The notes under the pieces: generated by a model
The model's input: the letters and a program-made list of their open reading frames with translations, nothing else
Databases searched by the model: none
Told to the model about the DNA's origin: nothing
Shown: positions 3,197 through 20,792 of the stretch, piece after piece
Layout of the letters: each line of letters begins with the position of its first letter
How positions within the stretch are numbered: position 1 is the stretch's first letter
Source of the DNA: Candidatus Thorarchaeota archaeon
GTDB taxonomy: Archaea > Asgardarchaeota > Thorarchaeia > Thorarchaeales > Thorarchaeaceae
Direction: 5' to 3'
Assembly: GCA_016839445.1 (NCBI GenBank)
Contig: JAEOUG010000165.1
Span: 1 to 20,792 of the forward strand
Length of the DNA: 20,792 nucleotides
Made by a program: the position numbers and the translations under genes

Positions 3197-3355
3197 ATGG
3201 CACAGATCACGATGATTGTTTCAGTCATTAGTATCGCAGCTGCAGCGATACTTGGAATCCTCCTGGTTCTCTTCATACTCAGATTGAAGAAAGCGGGAGC
3301 AACTCGGCAATCGCTTCTGAATGAGATCAAGGAGGGTCCGAGCCAAAATGCGTAG
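3197..3355 (+). CDS. 52-aa single-pass membrane microprotein (absent from the supplied ORF track)
   Basis: Own translation: MAQITMIVSVISIAAAAILGILLVLFILRLKKAGATRQSLLNEIKEGPSQNA*. It has a ~22-residue hydrophobic stretch followed by RLKK, and its stop overlaps the ATG at 3348. An alternative start is ATG 3212. Confidence 0.6.
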   Translation: MAQITMIVSVISIAAAAILGILLVLFILRLKKAGATRQSLLNEIKEGPSQNA

Positions 3356-6300
3356 CAGACGATTCTTGCTCCTTCTGCCAATCCTGCTGATGCTTGTAGG
3401 TGCGTCCCAGATGCCTGCCTCTCTGTCTAGAAACGCAGGAATTGATCTTGGAGAAACAGCAGTCCTCTCTCAGAGCGGTCCGTACGACGGAGTAATCCCT
3501 ATGAATTCCTGTGTCTTTGTCGGAGACGTCTACAATGACTTCCAGAATGCGCTCTCCTACCTGGCGGCCGTACCACTCGCGGTAAGAAGCAATTCCACTC
3601 ACATGACATCTGGATTGCTGTTACCGGACACGGACTCGTATGAGACCCCGTTGGAGGAATGGCTGGCGCTCGCTGGATCTGCGACACAAGAGGCGATATA
3701 CATCGGTGACGTTACAAACCCCGACTTCATAGCTGCTGGGGGTATGGCTGACAACACGTTCTACATAGATGGTGAGAACTACTTCGATGTGGCTGCCGAG
3801 ATTGCCACGCAATTCTTTGGAGGCACTTCCGACGTCGTCCTAGTTGAGGCAAATCCGACTATCCAGTTCAACAACGACACCCTCTACGATACTACAGGTA
3901 ACCTGGGTGGTCTCCAATTCACGTACATTCATGGAACGACAAGCCAGAGCAACGACTGGGAGTGGTTTGGGACGTACAACCCGACTGAGGGGGGTGCCAT
4001 TATCAGTCTAGAGTACGACGGATCGCCATCAGGTTACATCTGGTTCGATCTCCTAGCAAGGGAAGATGGTGAGTACTATCCGCTAGACTATCCATATCTT
4101 GACGGGGAAACAGTCCGCTTCCCGTACACAAATCGGCCTGGCGAGACGTGGATCATCCACGCCATAGACCTCTACGATTATGTAAGGACAGTCACTCTGG
4201 ACATCAAGGTTGAGGTTCCACAGGCAGACTACTATGCCTTCACTGTGAATCCCGGAGAGGACTGTGTCATTGACTTCGAAGTCGATGTTCCATCAAACGC
4301 TGCCGTTGGTCTCAACGTGCTCGGCCCAACTGGCGACATTGTTCTAAGTGCGAATCGGTTTGCCCTCTTCTCTGAATACGGAGAGACCACAGGGTTCACG
4401 GCGTCGCTGGCTCATCCAGCTCCTGGATCCTACCAGGCTTATGTCTACAACGCCGAAACGTACTCAGTGGGCTACAGTATAGACATCACCAAGAAGGTCT
4501 TGATGGAGGATTGGGAGGAAGCTGGTGCTGCAGCAGCCAATGGCGCATCGATAGCAAGTGCATTGGGAGCTCCACTTCTCTATTACACCTCAGATGGCCT
4601 TCCATCGTACACAGTCGATGCACTGACCGCACTTCAGCCAGAGAGAGCAATCGTGGTTCGACCGATTGGTGCCCATGTCTACGATATTCAGACATACTTG
4701 GGTGGGATGGGTATCCTCTCAACGCGGTTGAACAGCTTCAGCGACATCCAGAGCTACCTTGACGTGCTCAATGGACGCACTGCTGGAACCGGAAGTGTTG
4801 TGCTCTACGATTCTTCTGGCACCTTCTTCTCTTCGGCAGGACTTGCAGCAACTCAGCGGCGTTCAGTTGCCATGCCGTTCAGCTACGGGGACTCGGGTCT
4901 CATGACCCTCTCGCAGATACCAGAACAGCTGAACTGGATGAGAGAGTACACGATGCCACTTGCATCCACGTTCTCTATACTTGATGTCTGGACGAGTTCC
5001 GGGCGACTCAGTGGTATGAATCCTCCGTATGCTTCCATGAGTGACATTGCTGACGCTTTCTACAGTTGGGTGGGACTGCATACCGGCATCAACAACCCTC
5101 AAACAACAATCACCATAGCTCCCTACCAAGGGTTCGGTGACACTCTTGCTCCAACCTTTGAGCGCGCGATAGCGGGTAGGACGAAGCCAGGTAGGTATCC
5201 TTCTGGTGAGAATGATGCAACACTGATTCAGATAATGCGCTCGATCCTCCGAGTTCCCTTGCAGACTGCGGCGTCGCGGTCTAAGGTTGGATTGGGCACT
5301 CATCTCGTATACTCGTACGACACCGTTGTTGAAACAAACACTCGCACACCAGTCTATGTATCGAACTCGGATGACTTCCCGAACTTCATGACGGATGCTG
5401 GATTGACCCCCGATCAGGAGGTTGGTCCTCAGGTCATCTCTGAGCTGGCATTATCGCCCTACTTCTGGTTAGCGTCGACGCACGGCGGAGTCGGAGGAGA
5501 GGGATACGACATTGAAGGAATCGCGGCTCTCATGCTCTGGGACGCATATCGAGGATATGACGAATCTGCCATTCCCTTCGACCCAGACTACAACGGCGAC
5601 GGAGTTGTCAATCCTCCTGAAGCCTACATCGATGGCTACAATGTGAGCCAGTTTGTGTCTGGTGTGGACCTCAATGGAATGTTCGCTTACTTCGACTCCT
5701 GTCAACTGGCATCGAGCTATGCTCCCGCCACTATGATGGAGGCAGGATGCGACGCGGTGGTTGCGTGTCGAGTAGATGCTCTGATTGGTGCTTCAGATCT
5801 CTTTGAGATGAATGTCATGGAGTCGATGTCAGGCGGAGAGGTCAGTCTAGGAGCTGCGATGAACGGCGCCTACCAAGTGAACTCACACGTCTATTCTACT
5901 GGATACGAGGGAGTCGACACCTACTCCACAGTCAGCACAGTCGGTGTGATTGGGGCGAGCTGCATTCAGTTTGTCATATACGGAGACCCCGATGTGACTC
6001 TACATGATCACAGCAAGACTCCAGCACCTTTCGCACCTCGTATCGGCGACATTGGGCCCGGTCGCACCGTGCGGGCTCATCCAGGCACTTCCTACGAGCT
6101 GCCGATTGGACCTCATGACCCAGTAGGCAATCTCTACGCAAAAGAGGGCGACTACGACATAGAGATCTACTCTCCCACTGCTGCACTCGTCGAGTCTGGT
6201 TCTGTCCACTGCACCGACTTGACGTTCGGAGGTTACGTGTTCAACATATCGGAGTCTGCTGCTCTCGGGCTGTACACGGTGGAGGTCACCGATACTTCTA

Positions 6301-8513
6301 CTCTTGAGGAGTACTCGTTCTCTATCCTTCTTGAGTGGCCAGTCCTAGAGGTCGTCCGACTCCAGACGACTCTGCTGTCGCAGTTCGGCTACTGGACCTT
6401 CGACCTCTCAGTGTTCAACCCTCAGGATGTTTATGCTGACACCATCATGACAGTGTATGTTGGAGGGCAAGTGCTATGGTCCGCAGATGTTGAGTGGGCC
6501 CCTGGCTACTCACAGATGTCAATCTACCGAGAAGTCGGATTCATGCCCTATGGTGCTGCCCAAGTCAGCGTCGTGCTCATTCTCAAGGTCACCTCGGCTC
6601 AGTGCTGTTCATTCTCAGACACTGTACATGTGAGCCTTCATTGGATCTCCATAGTCCTCTATGGTGTGGTGCCGGGTCTTGGCGTTGCTGCAGTCATTTT
6701 CGGCCTACTCGCTCAACGGAGTGGAAAGAAGAATAGCCTTCTGCAGACCGCCTTGGAGAAGGAAGTCCAGCATGACTATGAGGAGGCATTCAGCAACTAC
6801 ATGGATCTCGGCCTAGTGGAGGGTGGAATCCGGACTGCCGTGAAGGCTGGCTACACTGAGAAGGTCTTGGAACGAGTGATGCAGGCTCGGAACCCCCAGG
6901 TCAACGGGCTTCTTGCAGACTCTGCGCGAGGGCTCTACGAGAGAGGCGAGTTCTCTCTTGCTGGCAGAGTGTTCGAGTCGATTGGCGATTCGCTGGGACA
7001 GACGAAGTCCATGATAATGCACTGCCTCGCAACAGGTGATGCATCTGGTGCTGCAGATCTGATAAGGGGCCTGATCACCTCTGGTCGTCAGGACCTTGCC
7101 TCAGAGATGTTGCTAGAGAGTCAAACCAAGGGTCTCGCAGGGAAGGTTCTGGAAGGCATAGGAACTCCAGTGCTTGGCCTGATTCAGTTCATGGTTCGAC
7201 AGGGGAGGCCGTATCAACCGCTCCTCGATGGCGCCGTGCCTGAAGTGCAGGATGATGCGCTGCGACTGAGCTTATGGGTCGGCTTTGGGGCCATCGACCG
7301 AGTAGTAACTGAAGTCCTAGACGCATCATCTGTCGGAGAGATGGTTGAGATGACGAATCACTTGGCCGGAGACACGAGGACGTCTGTCGCCTCTGAAGTG
7401 GTGTCTCAGCTGGCTGCCGGAAAGAACTCCAAGAAGATCAAGGACTACCTCAGCGGCATTGGGCTTGACAATGCATCCTTCTCGTTGATTACGAGAGGAG
7501 TTGTCGACCAGCTGATGGACAACCCATCAGACAAGACGATGAGGAATCTTCTGAGTTCACTTGCCAAAGATGCACCCGGCAGTGATGCCTATGTTGCGGA
7601 GGTCTTCGAGGTTCTTGAGTTGGTGCAGGCCGGTGATTCGTCCGCGGCAGCAGCCATGGACGAGGGCAGAACCTTGAGTCTGATGGCAACGGTCTCTAAC
7701 CCTGCCGTAGTGGAGAAGCTTGTTGGCCGACTGCATCGAAGCAGGTTGGGTACTTCTCCGCTGGATTCTCTTCAGGTGTCTGACCTCGCCCAATACACCG
7801 TTAGACTGAGATATGCTGCAGTGGCTGCTCCCAAGCATGTATCGGACGTCGTCGAGAAAGAGCTCTCTGAAGTGGAGCCAATCCTGCGCCAGAAGATTAA
7901 GAGTCAGGCTAGGTCTGTCCTTATGGGACTAGACTTCAAGCCTGAGAGCAGCTGGTCTACCCATGCGACGGTAGAACAGCTCGTAATCCAGAGCGTAGAC
8001 AGGACTAATCCCTTCGCTACTATCGACGCGCTTGCAGATGCTGCAGGGGAGACCGGCTTCCCTGAGCTCGAGCAGTTGGTCGTCAAAACGATGAATGATG
8101 ATGAATCTGTCCGAGCATTCGTCAGGCGTGCAGTAAATGACCCTAGAATAAGACAGAAACTCGCGAGAGGGCAAGCTGTTCAGATGGGCGGACTACATGT
8201 TCCTCTATCAAACGAGCAGATTCTCGCCAACATCGCCAAAGAGGAATGGGACGCCAAGGCGGCCTACGCCTGGAAGAATGGTGTTCAGGCTAGCGCATTC
8301 GGAGTGCTCTCTAAGACTCTCTCAGAGATCGATAAGACGCGGCCGAACTGGCTGGAGGAGGCAACATCCCTGATCTGCAAGTACGTTGAGCATCTCAATG
8401 CTCGGAGGCTATACCACAAGAGTGGAACGAGTGCCGCGGTTAGATACCTATGCGAAGCAGCTGGAATGACGCCTCTGGAGGAGAGGTCCCTCAGAGACCG
8501 ATGTAGAATCTAG
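3348..8513 (+). CDS. Large type I membrane protein: signal peptide, CWB2-like repeats, beta-sandwich domains, C25/gingipain-like cysteine protease domain, Ig-like stalk, one TM helix, cytoplasmic TPR/alpha-solenoid region
   Basis: GGAGG at 3331-3335 precedes ATG 3348 (MRSRRFLLLLPILLMLVGA signal peptide). Protease motifs: GRYP (5190), STHGG (His 5481), FDSCQLA (Cys 5700), VIYGDP (5982). TM at 6642-6713 is followed by QRSGKK, then a helical C-terminal region of ~600 aa. Confidence 0.75.
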   Translation: MRSRRFLLLLPILLMLVGASQMPASLSRNAGIDLGETAVLSQSGPYDGVIPMNSCVFVGDVYNDFQNALSYLAAVPLAVRSNSTHMTSGLLLPDTDSYETPLEEWLALAGSATQEAIYIGDVTNPDFIAAGGMADNTFYIDGENYFDVAAEIATQFFGGTSDVVLVEANPTIQFNNDTLYDTTGNLGGLQFTYIHGTTSQSNDWEWFGTYNPTEGGAIISLEYDGSPSGYIWFDLLAREDGEYYPLDYPYLDGETVRFPYTNRPGETWIIHAIDLYDYVRTVTLDIKVEVPQADYYAFTVNPGEDCVIDFEVDVPSNAAVGLNVLGPTGDIVLSANRFALFSEYGETTGFTASLAHPAPGSYQAYVYNAETYSVGYSIDITKKVLMEDWEEAGAAAANGASIASALGAPLLYYTSDGLPSYTVDALTALQPERAIVVRPIGAHVYDIQTYLGGMGILSTRLNSFSDIQSYLDVLNGRTAGTGSVVLYDSSGTFFSSAGLAATQRRSVAMPFSYGDSGLMTLSQIPEQLNWMREYTMPLASTFSILDVWTSSGRLSGMNPPYASMSDIADAFYSWVGLHTGINNPQTTITIAPYQGFGDTLAPTFERAIAGRTKPGRYPSGENDATLIQIMRSILRVPLQTAASRSKVGLGTHLVYSYDTVVETNTRTPVYVSNSDDFPNFMTDAGLTPDQEVGPQVISELALSPYFWLASTHGGVGGEGYDIEGIAALMLWDAYRGYDESAIPFDPDYNGDGVVNPPEAYIDGYNVSQFVSGVDLNGMFAYFDSCQLASSYAPATMMEAGCDAVVACRVDALIGASDLFEMNVMESMSGGEVSLGAAMNGAYQVNSHVYSTGYEGVDTYSTVSTVGVIGASCIQFVIYGDPDVTLHDHSKTPAPFAPRIGDIGPGRTVRAHPGTSYELPIGPHDPVGNLYAKEGDYDIEIYSPTAALVESGSVHCTDLTFGGYVFNISESAALGLYTVEVTDTSTLEEYSFSILLEWPVLEVVRLQTTLLSQFGYWTFDLSVFNPQDVYADTIMTVYVGGQVLWSADVEWAPGYSQMSIYREVGFMPYGAAQVSVVLILKVTSAQCCSFSDTVHVSLHWISIVLYGVVPGLGVAAVIFGLLAQRSGKKNSLLQTALEKEVQHDYEEAFSNYMDLGLVEGGIRTAVKAGYTEKVLERVMQARNPQVNGLLADSARGLYERGEFSLAGRVFESIGDSLGQTKSMIMHCLATGDASGAADLIRGLITSGRQDLASEMLLESQTKGLAGKVLEGIGTPVLGLIQFMVRQGRPYQPLLDGAVPEVQDDALRLSLWVGFGAIDRVVTEVLDASSVGEMVEMTNHLAGDTRTSVASEVVSQLAAGKNSKKIKDYLSGIGLDNASFSLITRGVVDQLMDNPSDKTMRNLLSSLAKDAPGSDAYVAEVFEVLELVQAGDSSAAAAMDEGRTLSLMATVSNPAVVEKLVGRLHRSRLGTSPLDSLQVSDLAQYTVRLRYAAVAAPKHVSDVVEKELSEVEPILRQKIKSQARSVLMGLDFKPESSWSTHATVEQLVIQSVDRTNPFATIDALADAAGETGFPELEQLVVKTMNDDESVRAFVRRAVNDPRIRQKLARGQAVQMGGLHVPLSNEQILANIAKEEWDAKAAYAWKNGVQASAFGVLSKTLSEIDKTRPNWLEEATSLICKYVEHLNARRLYHKSGTSAAVRYLCEAAGMTPLEERSLRDRCRI

Positions 8514-11272: not shown

Positions 11273-11569
11273 ATGGAACTCACCTTCAAATGTCCTGAAT
11301 GCCAAGGAAAGTCTATACTCTCCATGAGCGATGAAGAGGCCGCTCAGATTAAGGAACGAATACGAAGTGAGGGGCGATCTCCGACACTCATCGTTCGATG
11401 CGAGAATAACCACGAACTACTTGTCACATTATACAATCCCCGGACAGGAGAGTCGTTAGGAGTACGGGACATCGTTGTACCTCACCGGTCGGAATCTGGG
11501 GAATCCTCGAAGAAGACGGGCTCCAAGGAAGTAGATTGGCTGGCAAAAGCCTTCGGGGGTGAAGACTAG
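11273..11569 (+). CDS. Small Zn-ribbon-like protein (CPEC...CENNH)
   Basis: CxxC at the N-terminus and CxxxH about 35 aa later, with a low-complexity linker and a C-terminal amphipathic segment (VDWLAKAF). Its stop overlaps the next GTG. Confidence 0.75.
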   Translation: MELTFKCPECQGKSILSMSDEEAAQIKERIRSEGRSPTLIVRCENNHELLVTLYNPRTGESLGVRDIVVPHRSESGESSKKTGSKEVDWLAKAFGGED

Positions 11570-11949
11570 TGGTTGTCAAACTCGTTGTCCGAGTAGAAAT
11601 GTGCGATATGTCTTCAAAGGTTCTCTTTCCGGAAGACGACACTACTGAGGAAAGAGCTGCTCTGTTGACTGGTATTGTTCAGCTCGTTTCTGTCGCCCTC
11701 AAGAGAGAGCAGGATGCCGACGCGGCTCTAGGCAGACCTCACTTCATGAAGTCTGACAAAGGAGTCATCGGATACGCCCAGACTACTGACGGATTCCTCT
11801 ACATTTGTGAGTCTGACAACGAAAGCGAGTCAGGTGATGTTCTTAGAGCGGTTGTGGACGCAGTCCACGCGACAGAAGAAGAGATTGTGAAGCGTATCAA
11901 GAAGGTGATGCGCAGACGCGGCGGCGAGATTGCAGGTCTCTGGGGGTAA
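11569..11949 (+). CDS. Longin/roadblock-like small domain protein
   Basis: 126 aa with an apparent beta-beta-alpha(AALLTGIVQLVSVAL)-beta-beta-beta-alpha-alpha order. GGGGTGA SD, TAGTG overlap, and located upstream of a small GTPase. Confidence 0.6.
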   Translation: MVVKLVVRVEMCDMSSKVLFPEDDTTEERAALLTGIVQLVSVALKREQDADAALGRPHFMKSDKGVIGYAQTTDGFLYICESDNESESGDVLRAVVDAVHATEEEIVKRIKKVMRRRGGEIAGLWG

Positions 11950-11964
11950 GAAGGAGGTAGAACG

Positions 11965-13359
11965 ATGGATTTCGAGCTTGCTTTGTACACGAGTGGAACA
12001 ATGACTGCAGTGCTGCTTGCTGCAATGCTAGTTGTCTATGGTGTGTCGATTCGCAGAGTCTTCGGCAACGTGACTAGCTCAACCAAGAGAGCACTGATCA
12101 TGTTTGGCTTGTCAGGTCTGATGACAGTAGTCGTTACGGTAGCTGGGTTGTACTTCCGGGGCTTCTTCCTCTCATGGATGGGTTTCTTCTTTGCATTCGT
12201 TGTGTCAACCATTCTGTATGTTCTCTACCCTGAAAGCCGTAGGGCATTCGTTGGCCGCTTGGTCACCTTCATCATCGCTTTCGGAATGCTTGCTGAGAAC
12301 TTCGTGAGAATGGTCTTGCTGCCTGGTTACACACAGATGTTCGAATACATGGGACTCACAATCCTACTTGTGGCCAGTTTCATCTACTCCATTATACTCG
12401 TGAGGGACACGCCGTCGGCATTCAGCGGTTCCATCCTCCTAGTTCTTGTGCTCTACGTGGTCACAGCAGCTACGGCGGCTACATCATTCATCTTCATACA
12501 CACCGAGTACTTCATCATCCAGTCACTTCCAATCATTGTTTCAGCAGCGGTCTTTGGGTCTGTCCTTAGGCCATGGAGGACTATGATCACACTCTTCATT
12601 GTCTTCCTGGCTGCGTCAATGGGTGGAGGACTGGTCTGGGCTGCTCTTCTTGCAGGAGATGTACTCATCTGGCAATTCACCATTGTGGCTGTCGCTGCCT
12701 GCATTTGCGTGGTTGCTCCGCTCAACTTCTTCATACAACAAGGCGCTGACACAGGTGCAAGGACTCCCCGCTTCATTGGTGTCGTGCTGATTGCCCTCTC
12801 TCTGCTGATACTGACCCACACCAACTCATGGGCTATCTACCTCATGGAGATTGGGCCAAAGGCTGCGCTAGTCTGGAATGAGTACATGGTGTCAGTGGAT
12901 GTCATTCTAGGAGTGATTGCCATTGGCACATTTGCCTTGGCTGCTTCTGCAGCATCATTTGGGGAGAGAACCTACTCCACAATCAGAGAGGTAGTTGTGG
13001 CACTCGGCACAGCCATTGCAGTCCTGGGTCTCTATCCTGTTCGCTTTGATCGCTGGCAGGCCAACGCTCTGTACCCGATCTTGGCCCTCTTGATGGCCGT
13101 TGGAGTCATCATGTTCATACGTGTGTCAGTCCGCATCTACAGAGCTGGAGCCACAAGGGCCGCTCAGAACTTCATGACGTTCATAGTCTCATCCTTGACG
13201 ATTGGCATAGTCGTTATGTTTTCTGACCAAATCGCGGCCATTAGTTTTGGCCTAGTACTACTGATGATGGCAGCCGCAGGAGCACTGGCTCTGGCAAGTA
13301 GCCCACCAGTCCTTGCGTCCATAGGGAAGAGATTTAGAGGGACTCAAGCGGGGACGTAA
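11965..13359 (+). CDS. Polytopic membrane protein, ~15 predicted TM helices, unknown function
   Basis: Strong SD (AAGGAGGT) before ATG 11965. About 15 hydrophobic segments with short loops, and Arg/Lys concentrated after the odd-numbered helices. Confidence 0.85.
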   Translation: MDFELALYTSGTMTAVLLAAMLVVYGVSIRRVFGNVTSSTKRALIMFGLSGLMTVVVTVAGLYFRGFFLSWMGFFFAFVVSTILYVLYPESRRAFVGRLVTFIIAFGMLAENFVRMVLLPGYTQMFEYMGLTILLVASFIYSIILVRDTPSAFSGSILLVLVLYVVTAATAATSFIFIHTEYFIIQSLPIIVSAAVFGSVLRPWRTMITLFIVFLAASMGGGLVWAALLAGDVLIWQFTIVAVAACICVVAPLNFFIQQGADTGARTPRFIGVVLIALSLLILTHTNSWAIYLMEIGPKAALVWNEYMVSVDVILGVIAIGTFALAASAASFGERTYSTIREVVVALGTAIAVLGLYPVRFDRWQANALYPILALLMAVGVIMFIRVSVRIYRAGATRAAQNFMTFIVSSLTIGIVVMFSDQIAAISFGLVLLMMAAAGALALASSPPVLASIGKRFRGTQAGT

Positions 13360-13376
13360 GAAAGCAGGTATGTGAT

Positions 13377-13925
13377 ATGACGATAGTGAAGGCTGTAGTT
13401 CTTGGCGATACGGAATGTGGCAAGACTTCCTTCACTAAGCGGTGGGTCACGGGCAACTTCCCAGACCCTGACTATCTTCGGACTACTATCGGGGTTTCCT
13501 TTGACACGAAGAAAGTCGAGCTGCCCGACGGCAGGAATGTCACTCTATCTCTCTTCGACTTCGGCGGCCAGACGCGATTCATCGAGCAACTGAAGGCCAT
13601 GATCCGGGGCACTGTTGTTGGTCTCTTGTTCTTCGATGTCAGCAGGCTTCAGACCTTTGACAATCTGATGAACTACTGGATGCCAATGATTGAAGAGAAC
13701 AGCACACTCAGGCTCCGCGAAGGAGACGGTAGTAGGTTCATTCTCGTGGCCAACAAGGTAGACCTCATTGACGATGAACGCATAGATTCTATTGGAGGCG
13801 AGATGTTGGACTTCGTCGAGGGGTTCGGCATGGCTGGGCAGTTCATCTCTGCGAAGACGGGTCTCGGAATGGAGAACCTTGACATGATGTTCCTTGAGGC
13901 TCTTCAAAGACACCTATCAGACTGA
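13377..13925 (+). CDS. Rab-like small GTPase (Ras superfamily)
   Basis: G1 GDTECGKTS, G2 TTIGVSF, G3 DFGGQ, G4 NKVD and G5 SAK; 182 aa. Confidence 0.95.
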   Translation: MTIVKAVVLGDTECGKTSFTKRWVTGNFPDPDYLRTTIGVSFDTKKVELPDGRNVTLSLFDFGGQTRFIEQLKAMIRGTVVGLLFFDVSRLQTFDNLMNYWMPMIEENSTLRLREGDGSRFILVANKVDLIDDERIDSIGGEMLDFVEGFGMAGQFISAKTGLGMENLDMMFLEALQRHLSD

Positions 13926-15263
13926 GTAGCTCATGCCTTCTACCTGGACATAGGGAAGGAGGTAGGTCTGATTGTCATATCTTGTGGCCAATCGTTCCTT
14001 ACTAATCGCAGTGATGTTCTTCAGGAGTTCGAAGACGTTCCCCGTCACTTGTATCTCCTTCAGAGTGTGTCTGAGCTCTCCGTCCTCTATCAGCTGACCT
14101 CCCTTCACCGGACCTGCGAAGACTCCTGAGACTGGATCCGGGAACGCACTAATCCTCGGGATAAGAATCCCCTTCCTGATGCCACCCAACATCTCATCAA
14201 CCGAAACACTACCAGCTGGTATCTCGATGTTTGTGCTAGAGATAGTTGGGGCTTGTCTGAATGTCCCTCTCGCGTGGCCAGTTGACTGCAATGACTCCTT
14301 GTTAGCAGTGAAGGCGTCATAGAGAATCCCCTTGAATACGCCTTTGTCTATGATCTTGTGCGGGCGATGAGGAATACCTTCTCTGTCAAAGGAAGCGCTC
14401 CCGGTTTCGCTCTCTTTGCTTCCATCGTCGATAATCGAGAGACTCGGTACCGCAATCTGCTCGCCAAGCCGATCGGCGAGGTAGCTTGCTCCGTCCTGTA
14501 TCCTACTGGCGCAAGCAGCAAGGACAAACGCATTGAGGAGCTCAACAAGGCAGTCTGGAGAGAGTATTGTCGGACCAGCCAAGGCTTCTGCCTTTTTCGC
14601 TCCAAGGTTTCGGACGACCCTCTCCCCGAAACCTGTCACTGTTGCTTCTATGTCCACCTTCTTCTTACTTGGAAAGGCCTCCAGGACATAGTCGAACGAG
14701 CCTATGTCGTCACCATCGACAGCCATCCCGAAGAGGAAGATTTGAAGGAATGTCTTCTTCTCCGATGACCTGATTCCGTTCGAGGAGAGAATTGCGCTCT
14801 CTACTGCGTTAGCTCCTAGGTTTGTAGAGTCTACTGAGATCCTCTCATCAAATGCTCTAACAGCTGAAAGGACATCGGCCGCATACTCAAGGACTTCATC
14901 CATTGAGAGGTCTTCCAAGTTCTTATCGTGAAGGCCCTTCACCCTCGAGATAGGCTGAGGATTGGGGAGCGAGTAGTGATCTATGCTCGGTGTCCCCTTA
15001 GCAATAGAGACCGCGGTTGCGATACCTTCCTCGATCCTTTCAGAGGCCAGCGAATTCACGCTCGTGAACCCGATGCACTTGTTGATGAGCACGCGGATTC
15101 CTACTCCATCCACAATGGTACTTGTCGCGCTCTTCAGGCTGTTTGACTCGATATTGATTGCTTTCTCCCTTCTCGACTGAGCAAACAGCTCGACTTCATC
15201 GGCTCCCGCCCTGAATGCCTTCTCTAGAATAGGATCTAGCGCGTCAAGCAATTCCCCACCCAT
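13917..15263 (-). CDS. pmbA: TldE/PmbA family protein (non-catalytic partner of TldD)
   Basis: GVGIRV, FDREG and GHA motifs, with no HExxxH. The start is corrected to ATG 15263 (MGGELL), 1 nt after the tldD stop, with a GGAGGTG SD at 15270-15276. Confidence 0.9.
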   Translation of the reverse strand: MGGELLDALDPILEKAFRAGADEVELFAQSRREKAINIESNSLKSATSTIVDGVGIRVLINKCIGFTSVNSLASERIEEGIATAVSIAKGTPSIDHYSLPNPQPISRVKGLHDKNLEDLSMDEVLEYAADVLSAVRAFDERISVDSTNLGANAVESAILSSNGIRSSEKKTFLQIFLFGMAVDGDDIGSFDYVLEAFPSKKKVDIEATVTGFGERVVRNLGAKKAEALAGPTILSPDCLVELLNAFVLAACASRIQDGASYLADRLGEQIAVPSLSIIDDGSKESETGSASFDREGIPHRPHKIIDKGVFKGILYDAFTANKESLQSTGHARGTFRQAPTISSTNIEIPAGSVSVDEMLGGIRKGILIPRISAFPDPVSGVFAGPVKGGQLIEDGELRHTLKEIQVTGNVFELLKNITAISKERLATRYDNQTYLLPYVQVEGMSYSV

Positions 15264-15264
15264 C

Positions 15265-16650
15265 TTATGCACCTCCACCTGAAACAAGAGCTTGGGCTCG
15301 AGTTGAGCCTCCTCCGCCATCAACCTTGGCCAGTTGCCCTTTGCCGCAGTACCCTGCTCCCATCGAGAGCTTCCAGTTCCTGCCAACAGCGTCGACAGAC
15401 ATGAGGACGTCGTATGCATTACCGGTAACAGCTAGGTCTCGAACGGGACGACCAATCTCTCCCTTCACAATCTCATAGGCTTCAGGAATCTGAAACATGA
15501 ACTCCGCGCTGCTGTCTGCCTGTCCTCCGCCAGGCTCGACACACAGGTATCCAAAATCAATCCCTTCGAGGACTTCTTCATGTGAGAGATTACCTGGCTC
15601 AAGGTAGGTGTTCCTCATTCGTATCAGAGGTTCAACATCGTATTCAAAGGCGCGCTCATTGCCGGTCGGCTCGACGCCGAAGTGGTGCGCCGAGTGCCGA
15701 CTGTGCAAGTATGACCTCATCATCCCCTTCTCTATGATCACAGTCTTCTTAGCTTCTACTCCTGCATCATCAACGGGTATCCAACCTGCACCATAGTCCT
15801 GTTCTCCAGAGTCAATTAATGTGACCTGATCTGATGCAACCTTCTTGCCAATCTTCCCTTTTGCCGCACTTCCTGACATCACGAAATCAGCTTCCACCGT
15901 ATGTCCGATGGCCTCATGTGCTATGAGTCCTACAACGCCGGGTTCCATGACTATCGTCTGTTTGCCACCCTTGGGAAATGGAGCATCCAGAAGCCTGAGA
16001 GCGAAGTCTGCGACACGGTCCGCCAACTCAAGGGGCGGTTTCTGCTTGAATATCTCCCATCCCCCTGTGATGCCGACTCCCGCAGCAGCCGGAACAATCT
16101 TCGAGCCCTCCGCAGCTATTGCCCTCAAGAACAACATGGGGCGGCTGTCTTTCAACTCGACATCGGTACCATCTGAGTTCATTATGATCTTGTGACTACG
16201 ACCCTCAGAGACCCATGAGAGGCAACCACTGATTCTCTTGTCGTGGCCGCGAGCCCTTGCGTCCATCTCCTTCACGATTCCTACAGCCTCTTCGACTCTG
16301 TGGTTCTCAAAGGGGTCCTTTCCCCTACTCTCGAAAGAACCGGTGACAGGCTTGATCGGAGCCAGCGTAATCTTGTCCTTCTTGGTCTTTGCCAGAGTCC
16401 TTGCGGCTGTTACCGCGTCAGCAAGCGCTTCATCTACTGCGCTACTGTCAATCTTGCTGGTACTCGCGTAGCCCCAGGCCCCATCAACAAGCACCCGAAT
16501 TCCTATACCAGCGAAGTCGTCGACATTGGCCCTCTCAAGTCGCCCCTTGTCCATCCTTATCTGCGTGTTTCTATGGTGATGGTATCGGGCTTCGATATGA
16601 ACACCTTCTGGGCACTTCTCAACGGCTCTGCCAACTAGGTCTCTTATCAT
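15265..16650 (-). CDS. tldD: TldD metalloprotease
   Basis: GIGIRV...GAWGYAS, metal motif HEAIGH, DDAG, TGN-x-R, RMRNT and C-terminal CGK. Confidence 0.95.
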   Translation of the reverse strand: MIRDLVGRAVEKCPEGVHIEARYHHHRNTQIRMDKGRLERANVDDFAGIGIRVLVDGAWGYASTSKIDSSAVDEALADAVTAARTLAKTKKDKITLAPIKPVTGSFESRGKDPFENHRVEEAVGIVKEMDARARGHDKRISGCLSWVSEGRSHKIIMNSDGTDVELKDSRPMLFLRAIAAEGSKIVPAAAGVGITGGWEIFKQKPPLELADRVADFALRLLDAPFPKGGKQTIVMEPGVVGLIAHEAIGHTVEADFVMSGSAAKGKIGKKVASDQVTLIDSGEQDYGAGWIPVDDAGVEAKKTVIIEKGMMRSYLHSRHSAHHFGVEPTGNERAFEYDVEPLIRMRNTYLEPGNLSHEEVLEGIDFGYLCVEPGGGQADSSAEFMFQIPEAYEIVKGEIGRPVRDLAVTGNAYDVLMSVDAVGRNWKLSMGAGYCGKGQLAKVDGGGGSTRAQALVSGGGA

Positions 16651-16863: not shown

Positions 16864-17340
16864 CTATCCACCTGGGCTGCCTTTCCATGGAGTATCCTTC
16901 CACATGGCATCCCATATCATGTCTTCAGTGAGCGTTTCCGGCTCAACGATGGTCTTGTGGAGTTCCTTCAACAGTGCATGATGTCTAATCTCATCTTCCC
17001 GGATCATCATGGCTATCGTCTTGACCTGCTCACTATCGCTCTTCTCAGCCAGTTGCCCATAGGTCTTGACGGCCTCTTCCTCCATCTTGATGTGGGCTTC
17101 AATACCCTTGGCAATCTTGTCTCTCTCACCGGTTGATATGAAGGGCGTTGGACCCTCGACGGCCTTGCGAAGAGACCTGAGCAGAGCTGCGTGCTTCTTT
17201 GAGTCTGTGGACACGCCTAGAAGTAGGTCCTTCACAAAGGCGTTGCCCAGCTTCGCCACATTCTCTTCAACTATCTTGATGATGTTCATTTCGAGCTCGA
17301 TTTGACGGTCGATAAAAGCAAGAGTCTCGTCCTTATCCAT
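16864..17340 (-). CDS. Ferritin-like/rubrerythrin-like protein
   Basis: QIELE...DSKKH / HIKMEEE...EDEIRHH two-fold diiron-type pattern and an aromatic tail (WDAMWKDTPWKGSPGG). The start is corrected to ATG 17340 with an AGGAG SD. Confidence 0.85.
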   Translation of the reverse strand: MDKDETLAFIDRQIELEMNIIKIVEENVAKLGNAFVKDLLLGVSTDSKKHAALLRSLRKAVEGPTPFISTGERDKIAKGIEAHIKMEEEAVKTYGQLAEKSDSEQVKTIAMMIREDEIRHHALLKELHKTIVEPETLTEDMIWDAMWKDTPWKGSPGG

Positions 17341-17497
17341 GAGTGTACACTCCTGATTTCTCTGGGAGGACTGCGTACACATGTCACTTAAGACTGTTCA
17401 CAAAGGACCCTCTGTTCTCAGGCTGCTTCATAATCTATATCAAGGGTTTTCTGATGATACACAAAGACCACTTGGACAGAACGTGAGGTTGGACGAT

Positions 17498-19693: not shown

Positions 19694-20770
19694 CTATTTC
19701 CATTCGATTCTGTCATCTTCGATGAGTTCGTCGATTGCGTCAGGGATTCTCTTCTGTTTTTTCAGAGACCCTTGGGCCTCAAGCACTGTATCCTCTGAGA
19801 CCATGAGGTCTTCGAGATCTGAGCAAGAGAAGAGCGGCGTCACGTCAATCTTGTCGAAGCTGTTGTCCTCTGGATGATCACTGAAGAGATACAGCTCGGT
19901 GAGTCTCTGACATGTCGCCAAGGGTGACAGGTCTACTTCCGTTAGTTCATTCCCGGCGATGTCTAGAAACGAGAGCTGAGGCGTGAATGAGAGGGGAGTA
20001 AGGTCGAGCCGTTCAATACGGTTCATAGCAAGACCTAGTCTGACTAGGTTCTTGCAGCTCTGCAGCGGACCTAGGTCAATCGATTTGAGCCCATTACCTG
20101 CAAGCCTGAGGATTCTCAGGTCTCCACATCTGGACAGCGGGCTGAGGTCTATTGTCTCGAGTCTGTTGTGGTGGAGGTAGAGGAACCTCAGGTTGGTGCA
20201 CTCTTTCAATGGAGTGAGGTCTACACTTCCTAGCTGATTATACATGAGATTGAGCTGCTTGAGTTGTGTACAAGCTGAGAGAGGATCCAGCTTGATGGAG
20301 GTGAGGCTGTTGTTTTCCACTTCAAGAGACTCTAGTTGAATGCAAGCGGACAAGGGTTCAAGATCAATCGACTCAAGGGAGTTGTTGAATAGCCGTAGTC
20401 GCTTCAGCTTCATGGAGTTTGAGAGCGGAGAGAGGTCGATGGTCTTCAGTTGGTTGGTTCCTAGATTCAGCTCTGCAAGATTCGTACAAGAGCTCAGGGG
20501 TCCAAGGTTGATTGCCTTCAGTCCGTTCTTGAATAGGTCTAGGCTAGTCAATGTTCTGCAATCAGACAATGGGTCTAGATTTACTTCCTGAAGGTCATTG
20601 CGGCCCAAATCGAGTGTGAGCAAGCCCGGAAGGTGAGCTACTTGGCTTAGATCAATAGAGGAAACCTTGCTGTGACTAAGATCCAGCTTCCCTTCATTGT
20701 CCTCTTCGTCATACTCCACCGTGACCGACTTGCCTTCCTTGTCAGTATATGTGACTGTGCTCTCACTCAT
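19694..20770 (-). CDS. Leucine-rich repeat protein with ~12 repeats of 24 aa
   Basis: Ten consecutive exact 24-aa repeats with consensus LxxLxLxxNxLxxIDLxPLxxCxx, plus flanking irregular repeats. No signal peptide or TM. Confidence 0.95.
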   Translation of the reverse strand: MSESTVTYTDKEGKSVTVEYDEEDNEGKLDLSHSKVSSIDLSQVAHLPGLLTLDLGRNDLQEVNLDPLSDCRTLTSLDLFKNGLKAINLGPLSSCTNLAELNLGTNQLKTIDLSPLSNSMKLKRLRLFNNSLESIDLEPLSACIQLESLEVENNSLTSIKLDPLSACTQLKQLNLMYNQLGSVDLTPLKECTNLRFLYLHHNRLETIDLSPLSRCGDLRILRLAGNGLKSIDLGPLQSCKNLVRLGLAMNRIERLDLTPLSFTPQLSFLDIAGNELTEVDLSPLATCQRLTELYLFSDHPEDNSFDKIDVTPLFSCSDLEDLMVSEDTVLEAQGSLKKQKRIPDAIDELIEDDRIEWK

Positions 20771-20792
20771 CGAGGTAATCCCCTTTGCTGCC

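Follow-up and report, generated by a model that had tools for sequence, protein, structure and literature searches.

A stretch of 20,792 nucleotides from a Candidatus Thorarchaeota archaeon (assembly GCA_016839445.1, contig JAEOUG010000165.1, positions 1 to 20,792), analysed here as a whole and called the window below, carries a gene (3348..8513, forward strand) for a very large type-I membrane protein in which a gingipain-like ectodomain is joined through one transmembrane (TM) helix to a helical cytoplasmic tail of about 600 amino acids (aa). A small open reading frame (ORF) for a 52-aa TM protein overlaps its start. We favour, with some reserve, the reading that the two genes form a module that sets a predicted surface peptidase on a cytoplasmic scaffold. 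The protease represents a new and remote clade within a kind already known; the module made of tail, TM helix and small partner is an undescribed family as far as our searches reach. A preliminary description of this DNA, made without database searches, had not recognised the architecture as one already described, and our literature search likewise returned nothing pertinent; supplementary tables of peptidase surveys, which lie outside the scope of that search, may list such genes as C25.

To our knowledge all described C25-type peptidases are secreted or simply anchored, and large cytoplasmic solenoids on single-pass surface proteins are, as far as we know, rare in prokaryotes. Here, within one Thorarchaeota family, a C25-like enzyme is mounted on a conserved membrane-spanning module that has a large cytoplasmic platform, predicted to serve protein interaction, and its own small membrane partner, and that is able to bear other ectodomains. 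In an Asgard archaeon such tails raise the question of what the cell interior does with surface information or force. Partners of the tail, if found, would offer a tangible way into the study of how outside and inside are coupled in the archaea most closely related to eukaryotes; should the tail be no more than an elaborate anchor, the protein would be a lineage-specific curiosity that still adds a C25-like clade missed by Pfam.

Architecture of the large gene

The gene lies in a single forward-strand frame that is open from 3321 to 8513 without an internal stop (1730 aa; the residue numbers of motifs, domains and the TM helix refer to this frame). Its likely start is the ATG at 3348, giving a product of 1721 aa. 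This start, which the preliminary description had also chosen, is preferred because the public gene call (P0002, 1721 aa) begins there, the N-termini of the orthologues align there, and the upstream small ORF ends 8 nucleotides inside the gene. The predicted signal peptide (3348..3428) consists of MRSRR, a hydrophobic core and then ASQ/ASL, with a hydropathy peak at aa 15–33 right after RSRR, and is seen in the orthologue N-termini as well. A second, strong peak at aa 1109–1127 is the TM helix (6645..6701, hydropathy 2.29), directly followed by the basic stretch QRSGKK; a weaker peak at aa 1072–1090 falls within a beta domain. Acidic residues outnumber basic ones by 127 to 37 in the ectodomain of about 1070 aa, against 78 to 68 in the tail, an asymmetry that is repeated in 8 of 8 orthologues. 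The positive-inside rule is an established basis for reading such charge differences as topology, and under it the asymmetry fits a type-I orientation of the protein. We have very little doubt about this overall architecture and topology. Hydropathy, charge counts and the tail model thus bear out the original outline of a signal peptide, an acidic ectodomain, one TM helix with a basic stop-transfer and a long helical tail.

Three full-length orthologues in other assemblies (77, 62 and 41% identity, 1719–1741 aa) have the same plan, and further full-length genes are found within the genus in genomes G011 (1744 aa) and G014 (1746 aa). The tail, on whose presence in homologues the preliminary description had made its reading depend, is there too. 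A search for related loci with a 4-row alignment returned one locus.

A C25-like catalytic domain

The catalytic domain occupies aa 491–905 (4791..6035, forward strand) and contains the four motifs from which a C25 assignment was originally made, in the order and at the positions then named: GRYP at aa 624 (nucleotide 5190), THGG at aa 720 (His721, codon 5481–5483), DSC at aa 792 (Cys794, codon 5700–5702) and YGDP at aa 887 (nucleotide 5979). An AlphaFold2 model of aa 401–1000, built from a 30-row family alignment, has a mean predicted local distance difference test score (pLDDT) of 86.3 and a predicted template modelling score (pTM) of 0.80, and it includes an alpha/beta catalytic domain of two subdomains that has the caspase-hemoglobinase fold known from RgpB and Kgp. 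The top Foldseek matches are Kgp (E 1.2e-10), RgpB (8.5e-10) and PorU, and they outrank separase (18.6), CHAT/Craspase (15–17), the CHAT domain of DdvA (14.7) and MALT1 (about 11). In the model, strand 715–719 is followed by T-H721-G-G and strand 788–792 by S-C794. We take this placement to be the clan-CD arrangement and the two residues to be at the C25 catalytic positions, on the strength of the motifs of the family and the fold match rather than of a residue-level alignment; when the family alignment was set against the canonical C25 protein of the same genome with hhalign, only the GDP end aligned (probability 27%), and no residue mapping is taken from it.

Both residues are well kept. All 30 rows of the family alignment have both His721 and Cys794, though the distant rows are only 19–24% identical, and in a wider alignment of relatives the His and the Cys are each present in 35 of 40 covering rows. 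The tail-bearing rows retain the His in 11 of 11 and the Cys in 12 of 12 cases where the column is covered, and the Gly next to the His is present, like the GDP motif, in every such row that covers these positions. A third group of relatives (P0023, P0026, P0033, P0035 and P0036; 1918–2035 aa) keeps the C25-like domain and has lost both the His and the Cys; judged by sequence, these proteins look pseudoprotease-like. Retention of the two residues in the window's clade is therefore not automatic. The cytoplasmic tails of third-group proteins are lysine-rich, 140–218 aa long, and contain a TPR/MIT-like hairpin or two of them; in P0023, Pfam TPR_8 matches with E 4.3e-4. From the conserved residues and the model, the window's domain is predicted, with fair confidence, to be an active protease.

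The domain stands far from the family as Pfam defines it. In an exhaustive HMMER search with aa 401–1000, just 42 relatives among 1.84 billion representatives reached E ≤ 0.001. A Pfam scan covered 29 of these (28 of 41 besides the first orthologue), fragments being left out, and 6 of the 29 passed the cut-off of PF01364 (Peptidase_C25) with 23.6–47.8 bits. As these relatives pass while the window protein itself does not score, we call its domain C25-like and not a C25 member by that model. It belongs to a remote C25-like clade missed by the Pfam model, linked to C25 through its relatives and its fold. The original assignment to C25 thus stands as regards the gingipain-type fold and the invariant His and Cys, each following a strand, and falls short as regards the family model. 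Scans of the whole protein gave sub-threshold matches to MG2 and MIT alone with Pfam and nothing with NCBIfam, and phmmer searches of PDB sequences with aa 401–1000 and with the relative P0022 gave nothing meaningful.

A six-frame search of the window's own genome with PF01364 does find other genes, among them a canonical C25 gene (111 bits) and a 1269-aa paralogue on contig C72 (24.7 bits). The canonical protein (contig C131, locus L017 865–3516, forward strand; 883 aa) has a TM helix at its end and about 300 repeat-like residues between its His (AGHGN) and Cys (AASCSTG) regions, and its Pfam match is split.

Compared with the gingipains RgpB and Kgp (Porphyromonas gingivalis, MEROPS C25), the window domain is 10–12% identical. 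The His-Cys spacing in RgpB is 33 residues; in the window protein it is wider, at 73. Gingipains have a type IX secretion C-terminal domain, whereas this archaeal protein has a TM helix and a 600-aa tail, and it contains CWB2-like and PPC-like domains that gingipains do not share. The N-terminal ectodomain region (aa 37–284; 3429..4172, forward strand) is conserved in the orthologues and includes a weak second CWB2-like alpha/beta stretch, for which the profile search gave a sub-threshold match to Cwp6 only. It is followed on the same strand by a PPC-like beta-jelly-roll domain (about aa 285–390; 4173..4490), which the family profile matches to the C-terminal beta-jelly-roll of subtilisin-like proteases (3afg, E 1.3e-8; 9ues, E 8.9e-9) and for which Pfam PPC scores in relatives of the window protein. 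A CWB2-like alpha/beta domain (aa 401–490; 4521..4790) directly precedes the catalytic domain, and an Ig-like or macroglobulin (MG2)-like beta domain (aa 906–1000; 6036..6320) directly follows it. The membrane-proximal beta domain (aa 1001–1108; 6321..6644), in which W1025, P1061, G1078 and W1108 are conserved, aligns with a protease-less relative of 975 aa and forms part of the membrane chassis described below.

The cytoplasmic tail, the small TM gene and their modularity

The tail of 603 aa was modelled (aa 1130–1730, 13-row alignment) with a mean pLDDT of 85.7 and a pTM of 0.58. Apart from a single hairpin the model is helical throughout (36 helices), and it shows the stacked helix-turn-helix hairpins of an alpha-solenoid. 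A low-confidence linker (residues 310–316 of the tail model) separates a TPR-like N-domain (aa 1130–1439; 6708..7637, forward strand) from a C-domain (aa 1446–1730; 7656..8510, forward strand) that in the model is helical, with two long helices and the beta-hairpin. Structural matches are generic solenoids (IFT, Ski3, Naa15, designed repeats, VPS35L and COPI), none of them specific. A weak internal repeat (tail residues 13–109 against 71–153, probability 56%) hints that the tail begins with TPR-like hairpins. No TPR family model matches the window tail or three orthologous tails at E ≤ 1. The MIT model (PF04212) stays below its cut-off of 30 with 14.5 bits (E 0.04) over 22 residues at the tail start; such a sub-threshold match occurs in 2 of 4 scanned tails, the other being that of the G014 orthologue (E 0.12). 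The Pfam, NCBIfam and PADLOC scans assigned no domain to the tail (PADLOC: 0 families at E ≤ 0.01), and Atlas matches to it scored at most 0.79, with nothing usable for the C-domain. The tail is thus a two-domain alpha-solenoid of no known family, and the long helical cytoplasmic solenoid expected from the sequence is borne out by the model and its structural matches.

A word-based search, which is weak evidence, found no stand-alone tail among proteins shorter than 951 aa. The tail profile run against longer proteins, also weak evidence as it missed known relatives, returned just the three closest rows. A search of the window's own genome found no second copy of the tail. In separase and in TPR-CHAT (Csx29/Craspase) a clan-CD protease and helical repeats touch within one compartment, whereas here the membrane lies between repeats and protease, and the repeats therefore cannot gate the active site directly.

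The TM helix that joins tail and ectodomain is itself strongly conserved: all 18 rows have P1118 in the middle of the helix as well as L1120, and 17 of the 18 have a Trp at its outer edge. The small ORF upstream (3197..3355, forward strand; 52 aa) encodes a short N-terminus, one TM helix, a basic RLKK and a C-terminus of about 20 aa with an I-K/E-E-G motif, and its stop lies within the large gene. In all seven loci for which upstream DNA is available, a homologous small TM ORF runs into the beginning of the large gene; the products have 50–54 aa in G011, G014 and G387 and 168–170 aa in G354 and G353, with a cut copy in G352. A profile made from six of them matches 9 of 86 genomes of the window's family, nearly the same set as the tail, and 7 of the 9 matches adjoin the large gene; of the other two, the G356 ORF is followed almost at once by the contig end, and the weak match in G378 is on another contig than the tail gene, whose 5' end is cut off. 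A simple hydropathy filter found no such ORF upstream of five tail-less relatives (four clade-B loci and clade-A L005; the clades are defined below). The genes that flank the large gene on both sides lie on the opposite strand, so the small ORF is the only gene that could be co-transcribed with it. Its product is likely to be a partner of the TM and juxtamembrane region, and we name it as a candidate for that; a complex prediction with aa 1098–1730, run without controls, gave a score of 0.21 (mark 0.32). In the public protein collection the small ORFs of two relatives are present as unnamed or hypothetical proteins, and that of the window is absent. In G011 and G014 a second small single-TM ORF (53–54 aa; L014 3918–4079, L004 oriented 1071–1235), absent from the window, overlaps the start of the first.

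Among 400 genomes sampled from the phylum, a profile built from four diverse tails found the tail in 9, all in the window's family (8 of 85 genomes besides the window's own, and 0 of the 314 genomes from other families). In a sister genus the same kind of tail is part of complete proteins of 975–976 aa (G354 and G353) and of a 797-aa protein (G352) that have no protease, and whose ectodomains of about 300 or about 120 aa are Ig/MG2-like only. What these proteins have in common with the window protein are the MG2-like domain, the juxtamembrane domain, a TM helix with the proline, a tail of about 620 aa and an overlapping small TM gene (the 975-aa relative matches aa 949–1723 of P0001 with E 2e-45); they lack the C25-like, CWB2-like and PPC-like domains, and their small partner of 168–170 aa has an acidic extension. 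The genomes concerned hold only C25-like genes of clade B, elsewhere on other contigs.

The converse arrangement also exists. P0012 (1204 aa) and a G003 protein (1276 aa) belong to the protease clade of the window and have a TM helix followed by a tail of just 5–9 aa; the tail-profile search detected no tail in the G003 genome, which is 85% complete. In a quick maximum-likelihood tree built from 32 rows of the catalytic region, with P0013 dropped as too short, clades A and B are separated by a long branch with a Shimodaira-Hasegawa-like approximate likelihood ratio test (SH-aLRT) value of 100. Clade A has 11 tail-bearing rows, 2 identical tail-less rows nested within them (SH-aLRT 98), and P0009, while the 18 rows of clade B have short or unknown tails. 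P0009 (1338 aa) has a tail of 201 aa, of which only the first ~50 residues are shared with the 600-aa tail (hmmsearch E 8.6e-6, profile positions 6–57). The membrane-anchored clade-B relatives, including the C72 paralogue of the window's own genome, follow the same ectodomain plan (PPC-like, CWB2-like, and C25-like with His and Cys) and end in a C-terminal TM helix; they differ in having tails of 4–59 aa and 19–24% identity to the window protein, and several of them, unlike it, pass the PF01364 cut-off.

Stalk, TM helix, tail and small partner are thus a conserved and separable chassis that also exists without the protease. The preliminary description had suggested that the tail is functionally coupled to proteolysis; this idea is weakened by the protease-less chassis of the sister genus and by the 5–9-aa tails within the protease clade.

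Function and genomic surroundings

The reading that we prefer, a predicted surface peptidase on a cytoplasmic scaffold encoded by a two-gene module, is in our view somewhat better than an even bet. The C25-like ectodomain would act as a surface cysteine peptidase, feeding on external protein. Such a role matches that assigned to C25 genes in sediment archaea, where two reports count them among the extracellular peptidases (PMC6461988; bioRxiv 10.1101/2025.03.11.642519). The tail would most likely be a protein-binding scaffold, since our scans found no catalytic or signalling domain in it and since it serves different ectodomains, and it may hold, position or cluster, through cytoplasmic partners, whichever ectodomain the chassis bears. 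That the tail is a non-enzymatic scaffold we consider quite likely. The small TM protein would work alongside it in anchoring or positioning, and that the role of the tail is of this kind rather than in signalling is offered tentatively.

Several points count against this interpretation. PF01364 does not match the window protein even at E ≤ 1, and the six-frame search of its genome gave 4 hits, none of which is this gene; the 30-row family profile run against PDB sequences found PPC-like and CWB2 domains and no gingipain. The tail model comes from 13 sequences and leaves the arrangement of its domains uncertain (pTM 0.58), and the proposed scaffold role is argued from the absence of enzymatic domains and from a generic fold. 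No conserved neighbour was found besides the small ORF, and no RNA run is listed as holding the gene. The module is also patchy, having been found in 4 of 28 genomes of the genus (the window's own, G000, and 3 of the other 27) and 9 of 86 of the family, and it is therefore dispensable.

The architecture might instead serve transmembrane signalling by regulated proteolysis, in which an event at the ectodomain, either binding or a cut, would set off autoprocessing, perhaps in trans within a dimer; shedding would come next, and the solenoid, once released or rearranged, would relay the signal. DdvA of Myxococcus xanthus (PDB 8rw5, 8rot) offers a precedent for a single-pass protein with a clan-CD domain outside and a partner-binding domain inside; its report describes a TPR-CHAT protein with an incomplete His-Cys site and, on the cytoplasmic side, an N-terminal zinc three-helix bundle to which a sigma factor of the extracytoplasmic function (ECF) type binds (PMC11506125). 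Its protease domain, however, is CHAT and not C25-like, its orientation is opposite to that of the window protein, and its active site is incomplete. The Pfam and NCBIfam scans found no zinc anti-sigma domain of the DdvA type, and none of the 15 neighbouring ORFs is a sigma gene. Nor was a sigma, anti-sigma, kinase, cyclase or DNA-binding domain seen in the tail or the neighbours, or a conserved site-2 protease or other partner nearby, and the identical type of tail occurs on ectodomains without a protease. We regard signalling as unlikely.

It is less probable still that the C25-like domain is a non-catalytic binding module of an adhesin or receptor, which the tail would link to the cytoplasm. 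The third group, which keeps the domain and tails of 140–218 aa after loss of the His and Cys, the wealth of CWB2-, PPC- and Ig-like domains of binding type in the ectodomain, and the existence of protease-less chassis proteins would all fit such a role; on the other hand no tail-bearing row that covers these positions has lost His721, Cys794, the Gly next to the His or the GDP motif, and the invariance of the catalytic pair extends to the most divergent of the 30 rows.

A small chance, in our estimate, attaches to the tail being a coat-, tether- or MIT-like module that couples to Asgard membrane-remodelling or cytoskeletal systems (ESCRT-III/Vps4, actin, small GTPases). What points that way are leads only: the sub-threshold MIT matches in two of the four tails, Atlas neighbours with clathrin/VPS/SNAP-type TPR families whose scores (0.75–0.77) lie under the chance-match level, the presence of IFT, VPS35L and COPI among the generic fold matches, and a Ras-family GTPase gene 5 kb away that is syntenic in two relatives. 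With equally slight probability, the chassis as a whole could be an archaeal transmembrane adaptor linking extracellular enzymes or binding domains to such machinery. It would then be a prokaryotic counterpart of receptor-to-coat or receptor-to-cytoskeleton coupling, and its protease version would direct surface proteolysis to places where the membrane is deformed or uptake occurs.

Practically no weight remains for the notion that the long gene is an artefact of assembly or gene calling that fuses a surface protease to an unrelated cytoplasmic protein, which has nothing beyond the unusual architecture in its favour and is refuted by the contigs that cross the TM junction, by full-length orthologues in independent assemblies and genomes, and by the open frame. 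The possibility of a chimera at this junction had been raised at the outset. Contigs of three studies bridge nucleotides 6645–6701 without a joint or loose end (X1 record 7, 6143–6959; X2 record 18, 6456–7022; X6 record 23, 5948–7928), one of the three runs being perhaps the window's own source, and the junction is not chimeric.

Among known anti-phage defence proteins the window protein has no match, as no PADLOC model scores at E ≤ 0.01. Its neighbours in the window include a Ras-family GTPase, a leucine-rich repeat (LRR) protein, subunits of indolepyruvate/pyruvate ferredoxin oxidoreductase, two TldD/PmbA genes and thioredoxin-type reductases, a set in keeping with an Asgard archaeon. At 11569–13925 (forward strand) a 126-aa ORF, a 464-aa ORF and the Ras-family small GTPase stand in a row that is syntenic with the large gene in G011 and G014; neither the 126-aa nor the 464-aa ORF has a Pfam, NCBIfam or PADLOC match. 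The 464-aa neighbour was considered as a partner of the module and rejected: its family is found in 40 of the 86 family genomes, often as tandem pairs and with or without the tail module, and so is unrelated to the module's 9.

On the reverse strand, the LRR protein (19694–20791; LRR_4/LRR_8, internalin-like repeats) runs past the window end. Two small ferritin-like proteins are also encoded there, one (1377–1862) with sub-threshold matches only, to encapsulin-associated ferritin-like cargo families (E about 1e-3), and one (16864–17382) that matches rubrerythrin/ferritin-like families. The two TldD/PmbA-family metallopeptidase genes are adjacent on that strand (13917–16650), and as their listed frames overlap by ~155 nucleotides, the downstream gene (13917–15419) probably starts at a later codon than listed.

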